Below, piece by piece: positions 935-36,714 of a stretch of 37,146 nt of DNA. The DNA is from a virus. Its lineage: Duplodnaviria > Heunggongvirae > Uroviricota > Caudoviricetes. The stretch lies in IMG/VR virus record IMGVR_UViG_2684622543_000013, one strand, 5' to 3'. Each line of letters starts with the position of its first letter. Position 1 is the first letter of the stretch. The position numbers were made by a program, and so were the translations under genes. The notes beneath the pieces are model-generated. The model saw nothing but the letters and a program-made list of their open reading frames with translations, did no database searches and was not told the DNA's origin.

Positions 935-1501
935 TCACTCCGGCCTTTGAACACCAGCCGGAAAGTACCGATAGAGTGTCGATAATCCCACACCGTAAAT
1001 AATGGCCAACTGATGGCGTGTATATCCTTTAACTAATAATCGTCCAATCTGCTCTCTCTCATGGGGCTTTAGTGCATTTGGCCTTCCACCTATACGTCCC
1101 TGTACTCTCGCAGCGGCCAGTCCGGCCAATGTCCGTTCCACTATCAACTCGCGCTCCATTTCTGCCAGTGCTGACATGACATGAAAGAAAAAACGGCCCA
1201 TAGCAGTGCTGGTATCGATACTGTCCGTCAGTGATCGGAAGTGTGCGCCCCGTTCGTGCAAATCAGATATCAGGGTTATGAGGTTTTTGACACTGCGCCC
1301 GAGTCTGTCCAGCTTCCACACAACAAGAGTATCGCCACTATTAATGCACTTTAAAGCACGTTTAAGGCCCGGACGGCTGGCCACTTTTCCGCTCATGCGG
1401 TCTTCAAAAATGCGGTCACAATTTGCGCTTGTGAGTGCATTACGCTGCAAATCACTGTTTTGGTCAATTGTTGATACGCGGATATAGCCGATAACAGCCA
1501 T
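935..1501 (-). CDS. Serine-recombinase DNA invertase (Gin/Pin/Cin/Hin family)
   Basis: Translation MAVIGYIRVSTIDQNSDLQRNAL...LVVWKLDRLGRS...MGRFFFHVMSALAEMERELIVERT...LSTLYRYFPA is the typical invertase pattern (catalytic Ser in IRVST, C-terminal HTH); adjacent to the invertible tail-fibre segment. Confidence 0.9.
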   Translation of the reverse strand: MAVIGYIRVSTIDQNSDLQRNALTSANCDRIFEDRMSGKVASRPGLKRALKCINSGDTLVVWKLDRLGRSVKNLITLISDLHERGAHFRSLTDSIDTSTAMGRFFFHVMSALAEMERELIVERTLAGLAAARVQGRIGGRPNALKPHEREQIGRLLVKGYTRHQLAIIYGVGLSTLYRYFPAGVQRPE

Positions 1502-2516: not shown

Positions 2517-3117
2517 GCCATTCAGTACCGACACCGTCGGATGTGTCGGTATCAGTGACTTTCACACTGTAAATTTCCCATTCTGTCAGTTTTGCCCGGT
2601 CTGTTTCAGTCGCCATGTTGAGGCGTATTTTACGCTCCAGCATGGCAATTTCCTGCTCAGCTTCTGCCAACAGCGACTGTTTCTGACTTTCGGCAACAGC
2701 GACCTCATGCGCGTACTGTTCTGCTTTATCTGTCACCCACTTTTTCCTGTCCCACTTATCAAAAGGCGTTTGCGGCTCAAGCAATGTCAGATTATCCGGC
2801 AGCGCACCGACGTTGTTTATCAGGACTTTTTCTTTTGTGGTTTTGTCATAAGCGGTTTTACCGCGATGGTCTTCCACATGCAGCCAGCGTTTACCGTCCT
2901 CACTGCGGACAATGGCAAATCCCGGTGCGGGTAATTCCGGTTTATCCGGATAGGCATCAGCTTTCAGACTGAATCCCAGCGGTACCTCATCCATGCTTTT
3001 CCCGGTATATTCCCGTGTCAGCGGGTGGCAGCAATACACCTCAGCCCATCCCGGAACCGTAGCCAGCCCATTTTCATCAAATACCGCGTACTGAATTTCA
3101 GTGTTGTAATCTGCCAT
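2488..3117 (-). CDS. Tail-fibre assembly protein (currently expressed orientation)
   Basis: 209-aa ORF immediately downstream of the tail-fibre gene; typical position and size of Mu U / P2 G type chaperones. Confidence 0.7.
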   Translation of the reverse strand: MADYNTEIQYAVFDENGLATVPGWAEVYCCHPLTREYTGKSMDEVPLGFSLKADAYPDKPELPAPGFAIVRSEDGKRWLHVEDHRGKTAYDKTTKEKVLINNVGALPDNLTLLEPQTPFDKWDRKKWVTDKAEQYAHEVAVAESQKQSLLAEAEQEIAMLERKIRLNMATETDRAKLTEWEIYSVKVTDTDTSDGVGTEWPTRPASPAR

Positions 3118-4413
3118 TTAAATAACCCTCGTAATATAAATCACCGCTTTGTTTACCGGTCTGAATTCATTTGCTGTGCTTACCTGACGGGATGCGTCAA
3201 AGGAGTATGCGACAGAGTTCCCGCCTGCTCCGGCTGCGCGACCGCCGGAATTGACGGAGTGACGAAATACCCCTTCGGAAAAATCCCCGCCCTCAATTGT
3301 CGGATTACCAAAGCGGCCGGTCAGGTTCCGCATGGCATCACCCTGGACACTGCCCAGCGTTCGCCCGGAGTCATAACCTTTTCCGCTGTCCAGTGCCCGT
3401 TTAAACAGCCCCCGGTCGTCGGGAAGTTTCAGTCCGGGAAAGACTTTGGCAAGCTCCGAATAAACTGATGCACTGAATGAACGGCCGTCATTCGCTAAAA
3501 AGTTTTCAGGGATAGCGGCTGTTGACTGCCATTCTATGGTTGCTCCGATTGGGATCCCCACAATACGGTTTTGTTGTATCGCACCATTGCTGTTCAGATA
3601 TCTGACAGTCAGCACAGCATAAGGATCGACATAGAACTGACCGGTATCAGTTTCTCCGGCTGCCGATGCGACTGATATTCCTTTGACATAAGTTGTGTTC
3701 ACATCACCGGAGAACGCACCGGTAAATCCGCGTCCCGGTAATTTGTTGACTGTTCTGAAAGGCAGGTAGTTTCCCTTCGGCTGAAATTTTTCTCCCAAAC
3801 CAAGGTATTCGAGAAGAGCTGCGACAGATTTTCCTGACAAGGCAGTCAGCGTATTATCCAGCGGCTGCTTACCGGCCAGAGCATTCGTCATTGTGGTGGC
3901 AAAATTTGGATCGTTACCCAAAGCCGCCGCCAGTTCATTCAGTGTATCAAGCGCCTCGGGAGACGATGCAACCAGTGCAGCAAGTGCCGATTTCACAAAT
4001 GCCGTTGTGGCAATCTGCGTATTATTAACGGTCTGCGGGGCAGTCGGAGCGGTAGGTGTGCCGGTTAATGCGGGACTGGCCAGAGGTGCATAGTCAGCAA
4101 CAACCGTTTTGACGTGTGCAGTATTGGCCAGTTTGGTGCTGTTATCCGTTTTGACCACCGTCGGTGCCGCCGGATTTCCTGTAAACGTCGGGCTGGCTTT
4201 CGGCGCATACTGGGTATGCGGGTCAGCAGCCTTAATGTGTTCCGAAAGGTCTGAACTGCCTTTTTCAACCTGTTGTTTCAGGTATGAAGTACGGCTGGCC
4301 AGTTGTTTAGCCTGACGGTTAGAAATCCCGTCAGGCCCGCCCAGGACGGGGTCAGAGACCTCAATCTGGTAGATGCCGTCTTCCCACTGCGGGGTTTCGG
4401 GTAGGTTTGCCAT
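3118..4413 (-). CDS. Tail-fibre protein (constant N-terminal part about 3804-4413, variable C-terminal part 3118-3803 inside the invertible segment)
   Basis: Translation MANLPETPQWEDGIYQIEVSDPVLGGPDGISNRQAKQLASRTSYL... with repeated TAPTAP-type fibre motifs; crossover site lies inside the gene. Confidence 0.8.
   Translation of the reverse strand: MANLPETPQWEDGIYQIEVSDPVLGGPDGISNRQAKQLASRTSYLKQQVEKGSSDLSEHIKAADPHTQYAPKASPTFTGNPAAPTVVKTDNSTKLANTAHVKTVVADYAPLASPALTGTPTAPTAPQTVNNTQIATTAFVKSALAALVASSPEALDTLNELAAALGNDPNFATTMTNALAGKQPLDNTLTALSGKSVAALLEYLGLGEKFQPKGNYLPFRTVNKLPGRGFTGAFSGDVNTTYVKGISVASAAGETDTGQFYVDPYAVLTVRYLNSNGAIQQNRIVGIPIGATIEWQSTAAIPENFLANDGRSFSASVYSELAKVFPGLKLPDDRGLFKRALDSGKGYDSGRTLGSVQGDAMRNLTGRFGNPTIEGGDFSEGVFRHSVNSGGRAAGAGGNSVAYSFDASRQVSTANEFRPVNKAVIYITRVI
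3790..3814. repeat. gix/hix-like invertase crossover site (inverted partner of 1566-1590), centre AA at 3802-3803
   Basis: ttctcCcaaaccaaggtAttcgAga versus reverse complement of the left site ttctcTcaaaccaaggtTttcgGgg. Confidence 0.7.
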
Positions 4414-4994: not shown

Positions 4995-6090
4995 CGGACA
5001 CCCCGGTCATGTTCAGCTTAACTGCAGTGCAGTTTGCCCATTCATTTTCGGTCACCACCCGCAGCGCCGGTGTCACCAGTTCGACCTGGTACACTCCGGC
5101 AACCGACAGTACGCTGATAATCTGGCTGGGAACGATATCACGGCCCAAAGTCGCGGTTCGGGATGCCACCCAGCGCTGTATGGCGCTTTCAGCAGATGCC
5201 TTCACTGAGTTGGCGTCCCCGTCACGGTAGATCGTGATGTTAGCTTCAATGGCATAATCAACCTGAACAGGTGCTTTAGCCCGCACGGTATCAGTGAGCG
5301 GTCTGACTTTTTCATCTGAGCAAAAGCTCTCAACCAGAGTGAGGATACTGTCGTCCGGCAGGCCGGTACTGAGCAGCGGATACAGCTCCACAGTGCCCGG
5401 AACCGGAGAAAGAACAGCAACGTCAAGGATATTGGGATGAGCCTGCATGGCATGAAAGCGGTATGCCATACGGCTTCCGGCATTCGTGAATGACTCCGGT
5501 GCCAGCCTGATACGTTCGCGGAGCCTGTCATTATCTTCCTGCTCTGAACCACCGGCGCTGACCGACGGGTTAGTCACCTGCAGGTCGATGTTGCCAATCT
5601 CATCAAGCAGCTGACTGATCTGCGCCGGTTGCCAGCCGTTTCCGGCAACTCCGGGCTCAGTGCAGGTAGCGGTGACATTGACCAGCAGCAATCCGGCCTT
5701 CAGCACCACATCAGAATCGGTAGCGAAAATAACGCTGTCGGACGCGCTGACGCGGGTACCCGCCGGAATCAGCACATCAGTATCCTGTGCTGACTCCACA
5801 GAGAACCGCAGTGTGGTGCTGGCGGGTTGGGCGGCAAGACGGTACACACCGACCAGTTCCCCGAGGTAATCAATCATCGGCTCACGGGCAAAAGCAACCA
5901 GGTTTTGTTTGGCTGCCTCCTGTACTGCTACCCGGAGCAGCATTTCCCGGTATGCCCACAGGTCAATCAGCAGGCGCTCAGCCTGTGCGGGATACAGTGT
6001 TTTACCGGTTGAGGTCTCGTACTGTGCAATCATTTCTGCCGTGATTTTACCGGCATCGCGTTCGATAAAATCGGGTTCTGTCAGCGCCAT
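4987..6090 (-). CDS. Baseplate J-like protein (Mu gp47 / P2 gpJ family)
   Basis: 367-aa ORF, position after the gpW-like gene; translation start MALTEPDFIERDAGKITAEMIAQYE... typical of baseplate J proteins. Confidence 0.75.
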   Translation of the reverse strand: MALTEPDFIERDAGKITAEMIAQYETSTGKTLYPAQAERLLIDLWAYREMLLRVAVQEAAKQNLVAFAREPMIDYLGELVGVYRLAAQPASTTLRFSVESAQDTDVLIPAGTRVSASDSVIFATDSDVVLKAGLLLVNVTATCTEPGVAGNGWQPAQISQLLDEIGNIDLQVTNPSVSAGGSEQEDNDRLRERIRLAPESFTNAGSRMAYRFHAMQAHPNILDVAVLSPVPGTVELYPLLSTGLPDDSILTLVESFCSDEKVRPLTDTVRAKAPVQVDYAIEANITIYRDGDANSVKASAESAIQRWVASRTATLGRDIVPSQIISVLSVAGVYQVELVTPALRVVTENEWANCTAVKLNMTGVSDG

Positions 6091-6428
6091 GGCAGCTCCT
6101 GAGTTAAGATTTGTCCGTCAGAGCTTTTCCAGCTCACCCGGAGCGTAAGATGTTCGCCGTCAACGGCAGGTTTGACCGTTATCAGCTGACAACGCGGTTC
6201 CCAGCGGCGTATGGCATCGACAGACTCCCGCACTACATGCGGGATTGCTCTGTCGACAGGCCAGTCAATGTAACGGTGCAGATTACTGCCGAACTCCGGG
6301 CGGTGCGGATCACTGCCACGGGGAGTACGCAGGATTATTTGAATGGCCTGTCGGATATCATCGGCTCCCCGGACGATTTCGCCGGGAGCCTGCAGGGCTG
6401 GTTGCCAGAATACAGAGGTCGTTTTCAT
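6081..6428 (-). CDS. Baseplate wedge protein, GPW/gp25-like
   Basis: 115-aa ORF with ...IRQAIQIILRTPRGSDPHRPEFGSNLHRYI... pattern typical of the gp25/GPW family. Confidence 0.8.
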   Translation of the reverse strand: MKTTSVFWQPALQAPGEIVRGADDIRQAIQIILRTPRGSDPHRPEFGSNLHRYIDWPVDRAIPHVVRESVDAIRRWEPRCQLITVKPAVDGEHLTLRVSWKSSDGQILTQELPWR

Positions 6429-6483
6429 TGGGGCAGTATTGCCCCTGTGAGCCGTTGCCGATATTAAAGGCGTTTAAGAAGGT

Positions 6484-24610: not shown

Positions 24611-25339
24611 TTAATCCACACAGCTGCCGCCTCCCCAGGTGAGATAACGGGGGGCCAGCTCCAGCAGAATACGCTGCGGGTAGTGACGGTTCTCGCGCCA
24701 GTTAGCCGCACTGCGTCCGGCATTGACGGTGGCGACATGACCAAACCAGCGGGTGCTGTCCAGTCCCTGCTGCAGAGCCAGACGTTTGTCACGCTGCACC
24801 CAGCCCAGACCACCGTTATAACCTGAGAGCGTCATTGCCATACGCTCACAGTTACCGGCTGCACTGACACGCTGCCACAGCCAGCGGTCATAACTGACCA
24901 GCGCCCGGATAGCCCAGGACGGATTAAACGGCTCGCGCTGATGAAGTCCGGGAACTGAGCGGCTTATCCAGTCGGCAGTGGCGGGCATGAACTGAGCCAT
25001 GCCCTGAGCACCAGCCGGAGATACAGCACCGGGCCGCCAGCCGCTTTCCTGATGTAACTGTGCGGCAAAATCAGCCACCGGCGCAGATACCCCCCATTCC
25101 AGACGGGCATTACGAATCAGCTCACTGCGGTACTTCAGTGCGGCCTGCGGGAGCTGTGCTGCTGCGGCCTGACTGAAAAAACCACCGCACCAGAGCAACC
25201 ACGCAATAAGCAGATTGTCCATAAGCTTCCACCAGAAACTGTATTTATCGTTGCGTGGTTCACCATGTTTAATGGCGGTTGCGCCCAGACAAAAAGCAAT
25301 CAGAAAGATGAATGTAATCTGAGGCCAGTTCATGGTCAC
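24611..25339 (-). CDS. Endolysin, lytic transglycosylase family, with N-terminal signal-anchor (SAR-type)
   Basis: Transglycosylase motif ...QLHQESGWRPGAVSPAGAQGMAQFMPATA...; hydrophobic N-terminus MTMNWPQITFIFLIAFCLGATAI. Confidence 0.8.
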   Translation of the reverse strand: MTMNWPQITFIFLIAFCLGATAIKHGEPRNDKYSFWWKLMDNLLIAWLLWCGGFFSQAAAAQLPQAALKYRSELIRNARLEWGVSAPVADFAAQLHQESGWRPGAVSPAGAQGMAQFMPATADWISRSVPGLHQREPFNPSWAIRALVSYDRWLWQRVSAAGNCERMAMTLSGYNGGLGWVQRDKRLALQQGLDSTRWFGHVATVNAGRSAANWRENRHYPQRILLELAPRYLTWGGGSCVD

Positions 25340-25686
25340 AGCCCCGTTGCCACAGACAGGCAGACTGCCGCAACAATCAGCGCACGGCGGATCAGGGCAG
25401 CGGAAAACACCAGGTGACGGCCTGTCTGAACGGGATAGCGTCCTTCCGACATCAGCTTTTTATCGTGCATCAGGTACTGACCCGGACGGGCTTTGGGGAA
25501 AAGTGACCGGTCAAGCCAGTAACCCAGCACAGCAGCCAGTGTGATAAGTGACAGTTTGTAGACCACCACCGGCAGTTGCTGCGGAGATACAAGACCGATA
25601 ATACCGAGCAGCAGCACGGCGGTCAGCAGCCATCCGATGAGGCGGGGTTTTTTAACGGGAGGGATGATTTTTTTCAGGTTTTTCAT
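25336..25686 (-). CDS. Holin-like membrane protein (first gene of the late operon)
   Basis: 116-aa ORF with 2-3 predicted TM helices, immediately upstream of the endolysin gene with 4-bp overlap. Confidence 0.65.
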   Translation of the reverse strand: MKNLKKIIPPVKKPRLIGWLLTAVLLLGIIGLVSPQQLPVVVYKLSLITLAAVLGYWLDRSLFPKARPGQYLMHDKKLMSEGRYPVQTGRHLVFSAALIRRALIVAAVCLSVATGL

Positions 25687-25800
25687 GAGGGTCTCCTTGT
25701 TATGTCGGAGACAGCATCACAAATACCGGGGGAAAGGGATTTTAAACAGCGTTAATAGTGAGACGGCAGGCGGTAACGGCATGATGCCCTGAAAGAACGA

Positions 25801-25828
25801 CCGGCCCGGTGCGCTAACACCGGACCGG
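25801..25828. promoter_or_regulatory. GC-rich imperfect dyad (CCGGCCCGGTG-cgctaa-CACCGGACCGG) in the late-operon leader; candidate activator-binding site or leader hairpin
   Basis: 11-bp arms with one mismatch, about 115 bp upstream of the holin start, in the 247-bp gap between the divergent late operon and methyltransferase gene. Confidence 0.35.
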
Positions 25829-25933
25829 CCGTCAACCCACAGACAAGACCTGTGAGCCGACCAGGGTTCAGTCAGTCTCGCGAGACCTGACCAGCCTGCC
25901 ATATTTTCACTGACAGTAAAAGGCTTACATATA

Positions 25934-26701
25934 ATGAAACAGCAATTTTTACCCATCGTCCCCTGGATTGGCGGAAAACGTCGGCTGGCCAAACATATTC
26001 TGCCGTTGTTTCCTGCTCATACCTGCTACGTGGAACCATTCTGCGGCGCAGCGGCACTTTACTTCCTCAAGAACCCCTGCAAGGTTGAGGTCATCAATGA
26101 TATCAATGGTGAATTAGTCAACCTCTACCGGGTGGTAAAGCATCATCTGGAAGAGTTCGTCCGTCAGTTCAAATGGGCACTGGTCAGCCGCCAGATTTAT
26201 AAGTGGCTGCAGGATACCCCGGAAGAAACACTCACTGACATTCAGCGGGCGGCAAGGTTCTACTATCTGCAGAAGCAGGCGTTTGGCGGTAAGGTGGCAG
26301 AACATACATTCGGAATATCCACCACCAGTGCACCGCGTTTTAACCTGTTGCGTATTGAAGAGGAACTGTCGATGGCGCACCTGCGCCTGTCCAGAACGCT
26401 GATAGAGCATCTGGACTGGCACCAGTGTATTGAGCGTTATGATCGCCAGCATACGCTGTTCTACTGCGACCCGCCGTACTGGGGAACGGAAGGTTATGGT
26501 GTGGACTTTCCGATAGGTAACTATATCCACATGGCGGAACTGGCCAGGAGTATCAAAGGGAAAATGATTATATCAGTGAACGATATCCCTGAAATGCGAC
26601 AGATATTTAACGGTCTGAATATTCACAGTGTAGAGATTAATTACAGTCTTGCAGCGAAGGGAACATCACGAAGTGAACTTATTGTAAGTAATTTAGAGTA
26701 G
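25934..26701 (+). CDS. DNA N6-adenine methyltransferase, Dam family
   Basis: Translation has the AdoMet motif PWIGGKRRLAKHILPLFP...YVEPFCGAAALYF and the catalytic DPPY motif (LFYCDPPYWGTEG). Confidence 0.85.
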   Translation: MKQQFLPIVPWIGGKRRLAKHILPLFPAHTCYVEPFCGAAALYFLKNPCKVEVINDINGELVNLYRVVKHHLEEFVRQFKWALVSRQIYKWLQDTPEETLTDIQRAARFYYLQKQAFGGKVAEHTFGISTTSAPRFNLLRIEEELSMAHLRLSRTLIEHLDWHQCIERYDRQHTLFYCDPPYWGTEGYGVDFPIGNYIHMAELARSIKGKMIISVNDIPEMRQIFNGLNIHSVEINYSLAAKGTSRSELIVSNLE

Positions 26702-26729
26702 ACTCGAAAGGGAACTTGTCGTCTTACAT

Positions 26730-26755
26730 AAAGATGCACCATAAGGTGCATCTTT
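26730..26755. terminator. Bidirectional terminator hairpin (AAAGATGCACC-ataa-GGTGCATCTTT) between the convergent methyltransferase and membrane-protein genes
   Basis: Perfect 11-bp inverted repeat with 4-nt loop, AT-rich flanks on both sides. Confidence 0.65.
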
Positions 26756-27173
26756 ATGATATTACTTTGATAATATTGAACAATCGTCTGCCTGTTTGTA
26801 ATAAACATAACATAGACGTGGCAACAAGCCCGATAAGAATAGCGGCTATAAACTCTTGATGTTTGCTTTGCAGCATTAGCCCAATTAAGCATGTCAACAC
26901 CAACACTAACAGAACCAAGCAAGTATCGAATGCATCACTCATCAGGCGCCTGTAATGTCCCGTTTTTTGCATATTTTTAAGTAACGGTTTATCAAGCAAC
27001 GATGCGAGTAGCGCAATTGCTGTAATAATAAAACCCAGTAATGTTGCAAAAACACTGGATAATGTTGTCATAAAGTTTGGGATTGCGGCTACTGGCATGT
27101 GGGGCAACTTGAACCAGTAGAGAAAACCTATTCCACATCCAATCAACAATCTAAGCAATAGGGCCGAGTTCAT
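26754..27173 (-). CDS. Small 4-helix integral membrane protein, second gene of the repressor-linked cassette (RexB-like architecture); start taken at ATG 27173
   Basis: About 139 aa with four hydrophobic segments (LLLRLLIGCGIGFLYWF; FMTTLSSVFATLLGFIITAIALLASLL; CLVLLVLVLTCLIGLML; FIAAILIGLVATSMLCLL); AT-rich; overlaps the upstream gene by 23 bp. Confidence 0.7.
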   Translation of the reverse strand: MNSALLLRLLIGCGIGFLYWFKLPHMPVAAIPNFMTTLSSVFATLLGFIITAIALLASLLDKPLLKNMQKTGHYRRLMSDAFDTCLVLLVLVLTCLIGLMLQSKHQEFIAAILIGLVATSMLCLLQTGRRLFNIIKVIS

Positions 27174-28044
27174 CTTCTCCAATATATGCATTGATACTCT
27201 CCCGGTTTTCAGCATACGCAGTATCGATTAGGCGGTACATGGTTTCGGCTGGAGGGAAACGAGCGTCAGTAACCACCGATTGATAGGACGAAATACGCTC
27301 GGCGATCAAATCTATTGGATGGACAACACCATCAGAATCAAACACATCAATTACCGCCTTTTTCGCCCCGAACTCGACCAATTCTTGCATAGCAAATTTT
27401 ATATTCTGTTTAAGCCTACCGTCACTATCGCCACGACGAGTATTAATCCCCATTATAATTTGCATTGTATCAGCCCCCGCATCACCAAGCAGTTGTAGTG
27501 TTTTTTGGCTGAAATCAGTATCAGGGTAAAGCTCAGGGTTACGGGGGCGAGGAATTGTTAACTGAATTTTTTTCATTTTGACATCTCCCCTCATTAGCCT
27601 AGTAATTGCATCTTTTTCCAGCAAAGGCGCAGGCTTAACCTTTGAACCAAAGATAGTTGAAAGAAATGCACTAAAACGGGTTATGCCACAAGCCACATGA
27701 TTGTAGTGCCAACCTACTATATTGATTTGAGGATAAAATACAAAAAAATTGCGTTCAATGATTCCTTCATCCTTAGCAAGTGGAATCGGGGTAGACTGCT
27801 TTCCTGGTGCACCTTTATCTGGGATATTCGAGTTGCGAAATTTCCTCAGCTCACCACTAAAAGAACCATCCACGCGTTTTTTCAACCCCCAAATTTCTCT
27901 AGTAAAACCCTCATGATTTGAAGATGAAGGTGTCAGCTTATTAACTACAGACTGAAAAGCATCTCCGAGATTTGCTAACTGTTTTGTGGACTTAAACGAT
28001 AACTGATAAAACTCAATACGATAATTTCTTACATCACCACTCAT
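27151..28044 (-). CDS. Hypothetical 297-aa soluble protein, first gene of the repressor-linked cassette (RexA-like position)
   Basis: Long ORF co-oriented with and 122 bp downstream of the repressor gene; distinctly AT-rich compared with the rest of the prophage; no motif recognised by eye. Confidence 0.7.
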   Translation of the reverse strand: MSGDVRNYRIEFYQLSFKSTKQLANLGDAFQSVVNKLTPSSSNHEGFTREIWGLKKRVDGSFSGELRKFRNSNIPDKGAPGKQSTPIPLAKDEGIIERNFFVFYPQINIVGWHYNHVACGITRFSAFLSTIFGSKVKPAPLLEKDAITRLMRGDVKMKKIQLTIPRPRNPELYPDTDFSQKTLQLLGDAGADTMQIIMGINTRRGDSDGRLKQNIKFAMQELVEFGAKKAVIDVFDSDGVVHPIDLIAERISSYQSVVTDARFPPAETMYRLIDTAYAENRESINAYIGEDELGPIA

Positions 28045-28166
28045 ACGATTAATCCTTAATATGGCAAGTTCAAATGGTTAGCGCGAACAACAAATCTTGG
28101 TGTTTAAACCAGCATGCATAACGAAGAGGTTTGATAGCCTCGTCGATTATTCCCATTAGGAACAGA

Positions 28167-28583
28167 TTAACCCACATTTTTTAGCCGCTCAATTGTTGCG
28201 GATAATTCTTTAAGTTGTTTTTCCATTTCAATTACACGCTGTTTTTCTTCAGCGCCTCGCATGAGATCTCGGCGAACCTCTGGGTCTAGCTGATTTAGGA
28301 GTTCAAGCATTTTAAGATCAGCTGGACTGAAGTTTTGCGTTGCAGGTTCAATCGTCAATACCTCGCTCCTATCCTCGCCTTTACCTGTAAGTAACCAGTC
28401 AAGAGAAATACCCTTTTCCTCTGCAATGTTTATGCAAATTGAATAAGGCACAGAGTCTCGCTTTCTCCAGCTAGCTAAAGTCTGTCTATTAACATTCAGC
28501 ATACGAGCCAGCTCACTGTCGTTATCAACATTAAACAGTGACATTAGTCGCAGAAGCACTGCATTAATGTCCTTTTTATTCAT
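28167..28583 (-). CDS. Prophage repressor (CI-like HTH DNA-binding protein)
   Basis: 138-aa ORF; N-terminal HTH ...LARMLNVNRQTLASWRKRDSVPYSICINIAEEKGISLDWLLTGKG; transcribed divergently from the ner-like gene. Confidence 0.8.
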   Translation of the reverse strand: MNKKDINAVLLRLMSLFNVDNDSELARMLNVNRQTLASWRKRDSVPYSICINIAEEKGISLDWLLTGKGEDRSEVLTIEPATQNFSPADLKMLELLNQLDPEVRRDLMRGAEEKQRVIEMEKQLKELSATIERLKNVG

Positions 28584-28666
28584 TTCAAATAAATCCCACT
28601 TGAGTTATTCATTTTAAATAAGTACACTTATTCATATTGAGTACATCATAACCTAACAGGAACACG
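28576..28666. promoter_or_regulatory. Divergent repressor/early-promoter switch region with three direct repeats of TTATTCAT (28576-28583, 28605-28612, 28628-28635)
   Basis: AT-rich 83-bp intergenic region between divergent repressor and Ner-like genes; repeated 8-mers spaced 29 and 23 bp. Confidence 0.55.
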
Positions 28667-28897
28667 GTGCATATGAACAAACAACAGGTTCGGGCACGAC
28701 TGATTGAACGGGGCAGCAGCCTACGCCAGTTCGCGCTTAACGCTGGCTATGAGCCACGTACTGTTACCCAGGCAGTAAGCCGCTGGGCTGGCCGGAATGA
28801 GCTTCCCCGTGGGCGTCTGACGTATCGCATTCTGCGAGATCTGTCCGTCGTGATCGGTAAAGAAGTTACACCCGGCATCCTTCAGGAGGTGTCATGA
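28667..28897 (+). CDS. ner: Ner-like DNA-binding regulator (Ner/Nlp family); start may be ATG at 28673 rather than GTG at 28667
   Basis: Translation ...VRARLIERGSSLRQFALNAGYEPRTVTQAVSRWAG... fits the Ner/Nlp HTH family; first gene of the early operon. Confidence 0.8.
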   Translation: MHMNKQQVRARLIERGSSLRQFALNAGYEPRTVTQAVSRWAGRNELPRGRLTYRILRDLSVVIGKEVTPGILQEVS

Positions 28898-29199
28898 GAA
28901 AAGTAAATATTTCCAGCTCAGGTTCCCGCATTTTGCGTGTTCTTAAAGCTCTTCGCGGTCACACACTTAATGGGATCTCAAATGGTGAGCTGGCATTAGC
29001 ACTTGAAGATTCTCCGGCCAATATCAACCGTGCGTTAAATACACTGATCGAAGAAGGGCTAGCAATGAAGCTGGATAACGGTCGTTTTGCACCGGGCATC
29101 CAGCTTTTGCAGATCGCTGTTGCGTATAGCAACGAGATGAGCCGGGCACAGGATCGCATAAACGAAATTAACCAACGGGTATTAGCTGGTAGTCGATAA
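28894..29199 (+). CDS. Winged-helix DNA-binding protein (putative early regulator)
   Basis: 101-aa ORF with HTH-like ...LNGISNGELALALEDSPANINRALNTLIEEGLAM... Confidence 0.55.
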   Translation: MRKVNISSSGSRILRVLKALRGHTLNGISNGELALALEDSPANINRALNTLIEEGLAMKLDNGRFAPGIQLLQIAVAYSNEMSRAQDRINEINQRVLAGSR

Positions 29200-29208
29200 G
29201 GAATAAAA

Positions 29209-30117
29209 ATGGGACGCGAAAAAATACAACCTGCTGAATTAGTAGAAAATTCACAGCTATCCGATGATATAAACGTCAATCTTAATGCCATGGCTGAGCA
29301 TCGCCTTGAAATCATGCAGCAGTTTGGTGAAGGTCTGCCTTACGAACGTGATCGTATTGTCCATGAAACGAAGTTTTACATGGCACAATCGGCAGAAGCA
29401 ATGCTGGAAGCAGGTAAACGACTGATTATTCTTAAAGAATGTGAACCTCATGGCGATTTCACTCAAATAATTACAGAACAACTTGGTCTTGCGGAAAGAA
29501 CCGCCAGATTGGTCATGCAGGCAGCTGTTAAATATTGCTCACCAGAGTTGGAGTCAAAACGGCAAGCGCTTGCCGTTTTGGGAAAAACAAAGTTGTTTGA
29601 ACTTATGACTGAAGATGATGGAGACCTAGTTGAATTAGCTGATGGCGGTACGATCGCCGGTATGAGCCTTGATGATATTGATCGCATGACAAGTCGTGAA
29701 CTGAAGGCCGCACTGCGCGAAGCACGTGAGACCAACGCAGCACAACAGCGCGTTCTCGCCGATAAAAACGAGAAGATTGACACGCTCTCCACAAAGCTGG
29801 AGAAGAAATCCCGGATACAACCACCAAAACCCGACGAAGAAGTGAAGAAGTTGCGGGCAGAAGTGACCGCATTATCCACTGAGGCGGAATCTGCCATCAC
29901 TGTCCGCCTGTTCAGCGCCTTCGAGATCCTGAGCGCCTATTGCGCAGAAAACCAGATTGATACGCCGAAAGACTTTATGGCGGGACTGGTCTGCGAACTG
30001 GAGAGCGCTGCCCGCAACCTGCGTTCTGCATTTGATCTGCCGGATGTGCCGACCGGCAACGTTGCCCCTTCCTGGCTGACAGACCCGATACCTGAGATTA
30101 ACGGGCGGGAGGCATAA
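29209..30117 (+). CDS. Hypothetical early protein upstream of the transposase
   Basis: 302-aa ORF in the early operon with AGGAA-type spacing; acidic, coiled-coil-rich C-terminal half. Confidence 0.55.
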   Translation: MGREKIQPAELVENSQLSDDINVNLNAMAEHRLEIMQQFGEGLPYERDRIVHETKFYMAQSAEAMLEAGKRLIILKECEPHGDFTQIITEQLGLAERTARLVMQAAVKYCSPELESKRQALAVLGKTKLFELMTEDDGDLVELADGGTIAGMSLDDIDRMTSRELKAALREARETNAAQQRVLADKNEKIDTLSTKLEKKSRIQPPKPDEEVKKLRAEVTALSTEAESAITVRLFSAFEILSAYCAENQIDTPKDFMAGLVCELESAARNLRSAFDLPDVPTGNVAPSWLTDPIPEINGREA

Positions 30118-35698: not shown

Positions 35699-35910
35699 TG
35701 GCTGAATCTGTTGTATTTTACCTGTTCTGGTATGGTCTCGCGGGATGGTGCACTGCTGAGTTGCACCGCCATTCAGGGTTTTACTCACGTTGCAGCAGCT
35801 ACGGACGCTGGTTCTGTTGGGCCGTTACATTCATGTGCTGGCCTGCTGCTCTTCCTTTATATGTCGATTATATTGGCGACGCAGGAAAAAGGAACGGAGA
35901 TGATGAATAA
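35695..35910 (+). CDS. Small hydrophobic protein
   Basis: 71-aa ORF with two hydrophobic stretches; start overlaps the preceding stop. Confidence 0.4.
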   Translation: MMAESVVFYLFWYGLAGWCTAELHRHSGFYSRCSSYGRWFCWAVTFMCWPAALPLYVDYIGDAGKRNGDDE

Positions 35911-36328
35911 ACAGCGCCTTATTCAACTCATTCACATAGCCCGCAGTGACCTCCGGATGGATGAGGATACCTACCGGCAGATGCTGCAGGGCCTGACCGG
36001 TAAGGCCTCAACCAAAGGAATGGATGCCATACAGCTAAACCGCGTTCTGGAATCCATGAAAAAGAAAGGCTTTCGTATTAAGCCTGCCGGGAAAGGTAAG
36101 TCCGGTTTACCGCTGGATAACCATCCGCAGTCAAAGAAAATCCGGGCGCTGTGGCTTGAGATGTCTGCGGCTGGCATCGTGCGCGACAGTTCAGAGCAGG
36201 CGCTGGCGCTGTGGGTCAAACGGGAAACGGGTATCAGCGCGTTACGCTGGCTCAGCAGTGAGCAGGCTGGCAGCGTGATTGAGAAGCTGAAAAAGTGGCA
36301 GCGCAGAGCTGCGGGGAGGAAGCAATGA
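35900..36328 (+). CDS. GemA-like protein (Mu gp16 family, DUF1018); start taken at ATG 35900
   Basis: Translation MMNKQRLIQLIHIARSDLRMDEDTYRQMLQGLTGKAS...RALWLEMSAAGIVRDSSEQALALWVKRETGISALRWLSSEQAGSVIEKLKKW. Confidence 0.7.
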   Translation: MMNKQRLIQLIHIARSDLRMDEDTYRQMLQGLTGKASTKGMDAIQLNRVLESMKKKGFRIKPAGKGKSGLPLDNHPQSKKIRALWLEMSAAGIVRDSSEQALALWVKRETGISALRWLSSEQAGSVIEKLKKWQRRAAGRKQ

Positions 36329-36714
36329 GCGACCTGAATCAGTTTCGCAGTAAAGGGCCGGAACTGTTGGTGGAGCTGGCACAACATACCTCTGAGACCG
36401 TCCAGGAAATTATTGATATTGAACTGGGAATTGCCGACCAGATTGGTCAGGCCGTCGCAAACCGCATGATGCAGGTCTGGGGCGGGCAAAACGTCTATTT
36501 TCCGATGGGTATGGTATGGCGGGTCAGCCAGCGTGACAGAGAAATATTTAACGAATTCGACGGGCGTAACCATCACGAGCTGGCCCGTAAATTTGGTGTT
36601 TCGCTACAGTGGATTTACAGTGTGGTGAAGCGGGTCAGAAAAGAAGAATTGGATCGGATGCAGGGCAAACTGTTTGATGGTGAATCCGATGCAGACACGG
36701 GGAAAAAGGAGTAG
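36325..36714 (+). CDS. mor: Mor/C-family transcriptional activator; start taken at ATG 36325 with GGGGAGGA ribosome-binding site
   Basis: Translation ...GGQNVYFPMG...RDREIFNEFDGRNHHELARKFGVSLQWIYSVVKRVRKEE matches the Mor/C family (C-terminal HTH). Confidence 0.8.
   Translation: MSDLNQFRSKGPELLVELAQHTSETVQEIIDIELGIADQIGQAVANRMMQVWGGQNVYFPMGMVWRVSQRDREIFNEFDGRNHHELARKFGVSLQWIYSVVKRVRKEELDRMQGKLFDGESDADTGKKE

Follow-up and report, generated by a model that had tools for sequence, protein, structure and literature searches.

Why should a transposable prophage carry a solitary Dam-like DNA methylase gene in its central region, and what might keep such an enzyme in check? The question is raised by 37,146 nucleotides of DNA from a virus of the Caudoviricetes (IMG/VR record IMGVR_UViG_2684622543_000013; this whole stretch is referred to below as the window), in which an open reading frame for a protein of 255 amino acids lies between the lysis genes and the immunity region. 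In what follows, we describe a conserved structured RNA element on the opposite strand just upstream of this gene, and we find that the RNA accompanies the methylase family, and other DNA-modification enzymes that include the Mom protein, in a wide range of phages. The best reading of the locus, which we hold to be probable without regarding it as secure, is that the gene encodes a Mom-like, late-expressed and tightly gated anti-restriction methylase.

By itself the methylase is of a known kind, close homologues in public records being annotated 'DNA adenine methylase'. The protein matches the Pfam profile for D12 class N6-adenine methyltransferases (PF02086) over profile positions 1-252 of 253 (E = 6.9e-29; 101.8 bits, the cut-off being 22 bits), and it lies above the cut-off of the NCBIfam 'dam' subfamily TIGR00571 (121.2 versus 114.85 bits). 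The PADLOC MTase_II model PDLC03253 also matches (E = 1.9e-114), and the best relatives of solved structure, in a sequence search of the PDB, are DpnM (5e-18) and EcoDam (3e-16). When a profile of 80 members of the methylase family was compared with EcoDam, hhalign returned a probability of 99.3% over 242 columns at 26% identity. The putative S-adenosylmethionine-binding motif I (EPFCGAAALYF, residues 34-44) is N-terminal and the catalytic DPPY (residues 179-182, invariant across the 80 family members) is C-terminal, which is the order of the alpha class. Within motif I, F36-C-G38-A-A40 reads FxGxA where the textbook form is FxGxG, but G38, A40 and A41 are invariant in the family alignment, so this is a conserved variant and not a mark of decay. 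Judged by its sequence, the product is an alpha-class D12/Dam-family N6-adenine DNA methyltransferase and, being solitary with intact catalytic motifs, it looks active. A preliminary description of this DNA had already recognized the 255-amino-acid open reading frame, its DPPY motif and its Dam-family membership, and the profile and structure matches agree with it.

The family is tightly conserved, with 64-93% identity across gamma- and beta-proteobacteria and a mean column identity of 69% in the 80-sequence alignment. A search of methylome papers on E. coli O111, E. coli ST131, Burkholderia and Shewanella found no recognition sequence for a close homologue. Some better-known enzymes were considered as kin and set aside: M.EcoGII and M.EcoGI are of the beta class, and hence of another architecture, and M.EcoGIX and M.BceJIII are plasmid-borne single-strand methylases.

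What, then, precedes this gene? The conserved RNA immediately upstream of it had gone unnoticed in the preliminary description. When 320 bp around the methylase start were compared among six relatives, about 190 bp upstream of the gene proved better conserved than the coding sequence, and this conservation persists where the upstream neighbour gene is a different one. (A small open reading frame within the conserved block was considered and rejected, its candidate ATG not being conserved.) From 80 methylase loci, taken from a collection with one genome per species, 46 upstream regions were aligned and turned into a covariance model, R1, which has a single match in the window, at the element listed in Table 1 (102.8 bits, E = 1.6e-26). 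In this first set, standard pairs fill 92.7% of cells (71.6% after shuffling), the covariation score is 0.576 (0.199 after shuffling, and at most 0.133 when partners are slid by one to three columns), and double-sided changes are seen at 23 of the 23 modelled pairs. Independent viral contigs tell the same story, with 97% of cells paired versus 78.3% in shuffled controls and a covariation score of 0.547 versus 0.179 (at most 0.156 with partners slid by one to three columns); because the pattern used to select these contigs holds P2 constant, only P1 and P3 were free to vary among them. Since both alignments had been fitted to the model, the structure is somewhat favoured; the slid controls are nevertheless far lower.

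The RNA comprises a 5' hairpin (P0), a long-range helix (P1), a short hairpin (P2) and a GC-rich hairpin (P3), and a nearly invariant unpaired GCCUUGG links P1 and P2. The base of P0 and P1 are mutually exclusive, because both use the same nucleotides (25866-25891, 25795-25798); the same three-segment arrangement recurs in distant copies, such as those of loci L041 and L071, and the alternatives could constitute a structural switch. On which strand is the RNA made? In the modelled helices, read in the minus-strand sense, G-U pairs outnumber A-C mismatches by 122 to 27, mismatches on the plus strand turning into G-U pairs on the minus strand, and from this we assign the RNA to the minus strand; the same count disfavours the idea that the element is a leader structure of a plus-strand mRNA. 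P0 taken alone has no strand preference, and the folding z-score is -4.89 for the minus strand and -3.10 for the plus strand. A clean sigma-70 promoter for the RNA was sought in vain: what is there is a TGAAAAT block (25892-25898), which is conserved, and a weak -35 region. Part of the modelled element, namely its first ten or so positions (GAAAAUAUGG), may itself belong to the promoter and not to the transcript.

Neither the window nor any of 12 diverse loci has a match that attains the gathering score of an Rfam family, and a 12.8-bit match to Xoo8 was treated as chance. The nearest thing to a known relative is the plasmid countertranscript RNA ctRNA_pGA1 (RF00236), of which there are full-length sub-threshold matches in the window (35.2 bits), L031 (32.7 bits) and L025 (29.5 bits), the gathering score being 45. 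The two have in common a small size, a high degree of structure, a position opposite the 5' region of the accompanying gene, and the succession of a short hairpin, a long GC-rich one and a U-rich tail. The phage RNA differs in its extra 5' hairpin P0 and covarying long-range P1, and in standing beside DNA-modification genes rather than serving plasmid replication control. By analogy, the phage RNA may act as an antisense, in the manner of a countertranscript.

What does this RNA travel with? A search with R1 found exactly one copy in 77 of 86 sources, always on the opposite strand and directly upstream either of the methylase gene or of a small open reading frame that precedes it. At beta-proteobacterial loci the RNA still adjoins the methylase gene though no other gene of the window is nearby, and in other phages the methylase-RNA cassette is placed elsewhere, where it follows structural genes or transposase genes or lies close to a contig end. 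The small open reading frame between RNA and methylase encodes a Com zinc ribbon (PF10122, E from about 1e-14 to 1e-16) in 17-19 of 80 loci, which thereby have a com-methylase operon resembling com-mom of Mu. Sampling of viral contigs by the RNA pattern gave 80 loci, 76 of them with enough flanking sequence, and in 68 of these usable loci a member of the methylase family stands beside the RNA. Among the exceptions, L103 and L117 have the RNA, com and a beta-class methylase gene, and L164 has the RNA (92.6 bits), com and a gene for a 229-amino-acid protein with no NCBIfam match, whose identity as Mom comes from direct comparison (65% identical to Mu Mom, E = 3e-109). In L114 (4845-4980, 65.6 bits), L139 and L166 a full-length RNA lies beside an open reading frame for a 679-amino-acid tail-fibre/beta-helix-like protein, with no modification gene, and in L118 and L140 the RNA is without a recognizable partner.

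Sampling was also anchored on Com, with the pattern IKCPRC, which selects one Com subfamily and gave 80 viral loci; for that subfamily, the RNA is directly upstream of com, on the opposite strand, in 78 of the 80. The gene after com belongs to the methylase family in 43 of these loci, and most of the others (about 26) have a beta-class methylase of 255-272 amino acids (e.g. L249, 2643-3461). In L194, L195 and L209 (~2807-3958) com is followed by a gene for a 379-amino-acid protein with a P-loop and an acetyltransferase-like motif, and in L227 (2661-3674) by one for a 337-amino-acid methylase with a CPPY motif; at one locus the enzyme after com is an SPPY-type methylase. In its full form the cassette begins with the structured RNA, which is divergent, and continues with com and an enzyme for DNA modification that can be exchanged (Dam-like, beta-class or true Mom). 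As part of this small unit, the methylase family travels between phages of beta- and gamma-proteobacteria, whether Mu-like, BcepMu-like or of other kinds. We found this architecture, with or without com, neither described nor catalogued in the literature or in Rfam. The RNA-linked cassette is the new part of the finding, and the window holds its com-less form.

Because the enzyme slot may hold a Dam-like methylase, a beta-class methylase or Mom, we regard the methylase of the window as a probable functional counterpart of Mu Mom. The com-mom operon of Mu provides a DNA modification that blocks restriction, and it is expressed late, under activation by C and gating by Com, a translational activator. 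Like that operon, the methylase gene belongs to a transposable phage with a Mor/C-family activator of its own; a Com homologue is directly upstream of the enzyme in relatives; and, in the viral contig L164, the RNA-com front end precedes a true Mom. The enzymes themselves are unlike, the one being a Rossmann-fold methyltransferase whereas Mom has an acyltransferase fold. There are precedents for methylases in the place of mom: Hia5, Hin1523 and Nma1821 are alpha-class, DPPY-containing, non-specific adenine methyltransferases that replace mom in Mu-like prophages; methylases of the Hia5 type are not expressed in the lysogen, and DNA modified by them withstands many restriction enzymes (PMC3299994). 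The window methylase resembles them in class and in its DPPY motif. The Hia5 family is related to Dam only remotely (about 15% identity to M.MboIA, reached at the third PSI-BLAST iteration; PMC3299994), and the window methylase appears to belong to another subfamily, because it matches DpnM and EcoDam directly, Hia5 being judged here from its published description. An anti-restriction role, one of the suggestions in the preliminary description, receives indirect support, by analogy, through the kinship of the cassette with com-mom.

How might expression be controlled? In the interval from the holin gene to the RNA there is a dyad-like motif (TTAAACAGCGTTAATAG), which has three matches in the window, at up to three mismatches, versus 0.17 expected. 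The copy at 25742-25758 is kept in enterobacterial relatives; E. coli EC5654 (L001) has one copy beside the holin gene and another immediately before the RNA-methylase module. The window copy at this position carries -10-like hexamers in both directions, TAATAG rightward to the methylase gene and TAAAAT leftward to the holin gene, and we see it as a candidate late Mor/C-dependent divergent promoter region; the two further copies of the motif (TTAAACNGCGTTAATAG; Table 1) may also mark late Mor/C-dependent promoters. Beyond the methylase gene, a hairpin revealed by a terminator scan is likely to serve as a terminator for both directions. The Mor/C activator of the window occupies the position of BcepMu gp01, annotated as a late activator.

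From these elements, a scheme for the com-less cassette can be proposed. The methylase would be silent in the lysogen and would be switched on late by the phage Mor/C activator, at a promoter near 25742-25765, and it would in addition be gated after transcription. Com would have been lost from the window, leaving the RNA as the retained control element. A rightward transcript from about 25765 would have a leader of some 170 nt complementary to the whole RNA, and the RNA would probably set a threshold on methylase expression, in the style of plasmid countertranscripts, until late activation. Alternatively, control might be exerted by competition between back-to-back promoters sharing an A/T-rich block (25892-25900); such competition has been described for momP1 and momP2 in Mu. 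Pairing of AAGCCU in the leader with a Shine-Dalgarno AGGCUU was entertained as a general mechanism and dropped, because it is not conserved in Paraburkholderia copies. Control by Dam and OxyR, as at Pmom, is unlikely, because the methylase control region has no GATC sites. The enzyme would modify adenines of replicated phage DNA before packaging, with the result that progeny escape restriction in the next host, a proposal made on the analogy of Mom and of the mom-replacing methylases of Mu-like prophages (PMC3299994).

The surroundings of the gene bear on several other possibilities. The window is a BcepMu/SalMu-like transposable prophage in an orientation reversed with respect to BcepMu. As the preliminary description had it, this is a transposable phage: there are genes for a DDE transposase, a MuB/ExeA-like protein, GemA and Mor, and the gene order matches that of BcepMu, although BcepMu has no methylase gene at the corresponding position. 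Related elements are E. coli prophages, at about 84% DNA identity, and Klebsiella phage KP12. Late genes run leftward (holin, SLT endolysin, then terminase, portal, head and tail genes), and an early operon that includes the genes for the transposase, the MuB/ExeA-like protein, GemA and the Mor/C activator runs rightward from 28667. Again as described earlier, the methylase gene diverges from the late operon, whose holin and other lysis genes are on the minus strand; on its other side it faces two convergent genes, likewise on the minus strand, that follow the gene for a CI-like repressor. An AT-rich island at about 26500-29500 (GC 0.39-0.47, compared with 0.52-0.61 for most of the phage) spans the 3' end of the methylase gene, the Rex-like pair discussed below, the repressor gene and the start of the early operon. 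At the other end, positions 1-841 are 99.8-99.9% identical to IS2 as found in Shigella phage SfX and Stx2 phage records, and therefore an end or flank of the prophage is interrupted or bordered by IS2.

Table 1. Positions in the window of the methylase gene, its RNA and the associated and neighbouring features
Feature	Position	Strand	Remarks
Methylase coding sequence, 255 amino acids	25934-26701	+	Open reading frame and translation; ATG start, stop included
Conserved structured RNA element	25775-25908	-	Opposite methylase; ends ~25 nt from methylase ATG
RNA P0, 5' hairpin	25871-25891	-	
RNA P1, long-range helix	25866-25870 with 25795-25798	-	
RNA P2, short hairpin CACAG...CUGUG	25850-25854 with 25838-25842	-	
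RNA P3, 13-bp GC-rich hairpin and U-rich tail	25818-25830 with 25799-25811	-	
Dyad-like motif TTAAACAGCGTTAATAG	25742-25758		Between holin gene and RNA
Further copy of motif TTAAACNGCGTTAATAG	6461-6477	-	Short gap just upstream of late gene 6081-6428
Further copy of motif TTAAACNGCGTTAATAG	1338-1354	-	
14-bp hairpin	26727-26758		Between convergent methylase and RexB-like genes
153-amino-acid gene	26754-27215	-	RexB-like; overlaps 297-amino-acid gene
297-amino-acid gene	27151-28044	-	RexA-like by fold; DUF6731
CI-like repressor	28167-28583	-	
SLT endolysin	24611-25339	-	Lysis operon
Holin	25336-25686	-	PF13272
GemA	35711-36328		Early operon
Mor/C-family late transcription activator	36295-36714	+	PF08765, E = 4.5e-43

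In relatives, the methylase gene stays beside the lysis genes, and the genes between it and the repressor gene vary. This gap holds the genes for the 297- and 153-amino-acid proteins in the window and in E. coli EC5654, a single gene for a 175-amino-acid protein in KP12 and Ecol_542, and a gene for a 401-amino-acid protein plus one for a nucleoid-associated protein in E. coli DLI.5a (L004, 5246-7461), and it is empty in FEA3. Both slots flanking the methylase gene are hot spots for cargo in related prophages: in EC5654 three small genes part the methylase gene from the holin gene (L001, 4633-5955), and in L005 (3827-4303) there is a gene annotated 'ABC transporter ATPase'. In family profile scans of the neighbours, no restriction endonuclease was found to adjoin the methylase. 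The preliminary description had called the gene an orphan and had reckoned with a cognate restriction gene lying immediately outside the region inspected; the orphan status holds, the neighbours varying among relatives and the adjacent pair being RexA/RexB-like rather than a nuclease, and no such restriction gene appeared in the variable neighbourhoods of the relatives.

The pair looks like a Rex-like exclusion system by fold and layout, and not like a restriction enzyme. The order repressor, 297 amino acids, 153 amino acids matches cI-rexA-rexB of lambda, and the smaller protein has four predicted hydrophobic membrane spans, like RexB. Comparison with the sequences of lambda RexA and RexB gave nothing significant (hhalign probability 1.9%, BLASTP E = 0.1), so that the lambda comparison is informative by fold and not by sequence. 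Among 5426 complete E. coli genomes searched by megablast, the methylase gene is present in 45 and the two-gene pair in 23; the pair is 91% identical to its copies in those 23 genomes, the flanking methylase gene only 84%.

Does the enzyme read GATC? The question divides the label 'Dam-family' given in the preliminary description, since the fold is upheld and GATC specificity is not: the methylase misses the Dam equivalog NF008152 widely (72.2 bits, the cut-off being 441), and the base-contact residues of EcoDam are not conserved in it. In EcoDam, R124 is responsible for reading guanine at the fourth base pair, a discrimination lost in R124A; Y119 intercalates, L122 and P134 contact the inner bases, and K9 and Y138 recognize the first base pair (PMC4417163). 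According to hhalign and the family alignment, R124, L122, P134, K9 and Y138 are all unconserved in the methylase family: the counterpart of R124 is A122, in a variable column, that of K9 is P10, a nearly invariant proline, and that of Y138 is S129, and P134 falls in a deletion, the recognition hairpin being about seven residues shorter than that of EcoDam (identity in this region is about 25%, and the two alignment methods differ in detail there). What the methylase shares with EcoDam, DpnM and T4Dam is the fold, the motif order, DPPY and the intercalating aromatic residue (F117 for Y119). With the GATC-reading residues missing, a different or relaxed specificity seems more likely than plain GATC. 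The window itself contains 85 GATC sites where a second-order model expects 178, an approximately two-fold under-representation that makes GATC, together with CTAG, its most depleted 4-base palindrome.

These observations have to be set against the view that the gene encodes a GATC-specific paralogue of Dam, like the Dam enzymes of T4, T2 and P1, which would top up the Dam methylation of replicating or transposing phage DNA and so avoid MutH nicking or DpnII-type restriction, or would serve the control of packaging or replication. The best solved relatives, DpnM and EcoDam, are indeed GATC enzymes, the 'dam' subfamily cut-off of TIGR00571 is passed, and the depletion of GATC implies that GATC-directed systems matter to the phage; yet so strong an avoidance would be unexpected if the phage fully protected its GATC sites, and we consider this view rather unlikely in the light of the missed equivalog, the variable column at R124, the near-invariant proline in place of K9 and the shortened hairpin. 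Moreover, Dam-positive hosts would suffer no harm from a GATC enzyme, which fits poorly with gating by Com and RNA as for Mom. That the family shares such heavy gating with Mom suggests that expression at the wrong time does harm, and with this a relaxed specificity would accord better than GATC. Could the enzyme instead be an epigenetic regulator of phage or host promoters, which stabilizes lysogeny or alters host expression in the lysogen? Its gene does adjoin the immunity region, with the late operon on one side and the repressor-side genes on the other, and a prophage methylase of Burkholderia cenocepacia H111, gp51, has been reported to be needed for lysogeny (bioRxiv 10.1101/2020.03.09.983379), but the relation of gp51 to the methylase family could not be established, the position of the cassette varies widely among other phages, the front end is shared with Mom, a late anti-restriction function, and comparable prophage methylases are silent in lysogens (PMC3299994, PMC5778455), all of which makes a regulatory role of this kind improbable.

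Two further alternatives concern the neighbours rather than the substrate. That the methylase is the modification half of a restriction-modification or two-part defence system, with the products of the 297- and 153-amino-acid genes as its partners, is hardly credible: the methylase gene does adjoin the pair and converge on it, the strongest PADLOC match bears the label 'Type II methyltransferase', and pair and methylase co-occur in those 23 E. coli genomes, but the methylase occurs without the pair in 22 of the 45 E. coli genomes, in phage KP12 and at all the beta-proteobacterial loci, and no nuclease family was matched. The upstream element, for its part, might have nothing to do with methylase control, and serve the late lysis operon as leader or attenuator, or be a mere terminator and insulator. 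In the window it does point to the holin gene, 90 nt further on, and P3 with its U-rich tail resembles an intrinsic terminator on the minus strand. To this explanation, too, we assign a low probability, since the element stays with the methylase gene or com where further genes intervene between it and the holin gene (L001, L002, L005), and is kept in phages whose neighbouring genes are unrelated or co-directional; a bare terminator, besides, would have no need of the covarying helices P1 and P2 and the invariant linker.

Several points count against the Mom-like, gated anti-restriction methylase that we prefer. No open reading frame with the CxxC...CPRC pattern of com is to be found anywhere in the window, and the RNA, for its part, was found in neither Mu nor BcepMu, so that the window is without com and Mu without RNA; and the methylase gene is central whereas mom is at the genome end. 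The promoter of the RNA is weak by consensus in the enteric copies; the ends of the RNA and both promoters are candidates placed from the sequence, and the overlap of the methylase mRNA with the RNA, like the link between the Mor/C activator and the methylase promoter, is something that we infer. We found in the literature no activity, specificity or expression results for any member of the methylase family. Some phage Dam enzymes with small recognition domains (T1, HP1, VT2) still methylate GATC, and because of this and of the disagreement between alignment methods, the loss of contact residues is evidence against a Dam-like reading of GATC, and no proof of another specificity.

It is tempting, nonetheless, to go a step further. 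The RNA-(com)-enzyme cassette might be a general modular gate for enzymes too promiscuous to be expressed freely, the window methylase being relaxed or nearly non-specific and the RNA, of about 115 nt, representing a new class of regulator. The methylase family would then join Hia5, of the alpha class, and M.EcoGII, of the beta class, as a third lineage, and the RNA could hold the cassette off until late in infection, whether it paired with the leader or acted on the ribosome-binding site by means of its conserved unpaired CCUUGG. This is offered as a tentative possibility, more doubtful than not.

Orphan phage methylases are well known, and the methylase alone would be routine. The neighbouring gene pair, if it is what it looks like, extends Rex-like exclusion systems to DUF6731, a family without sequence similarity to RexA. 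What is new is a widespread and strongly covarying RNA outside Rfam, found nearly always with com and several unrelated modification enzymes, Mom among them. Were the specificity of the methylase family relaxed, it would be of interest to users of Hia5 and M.EcoGII in chromatin footprinting and to those seeking a way past restriction barriers. And if the RNA is a regulator, it would add an extra layer to the control of mom, a classic case of multi-level gene control, and would provide a simple marker for anti-restriction modification cassettes in phage genomes.

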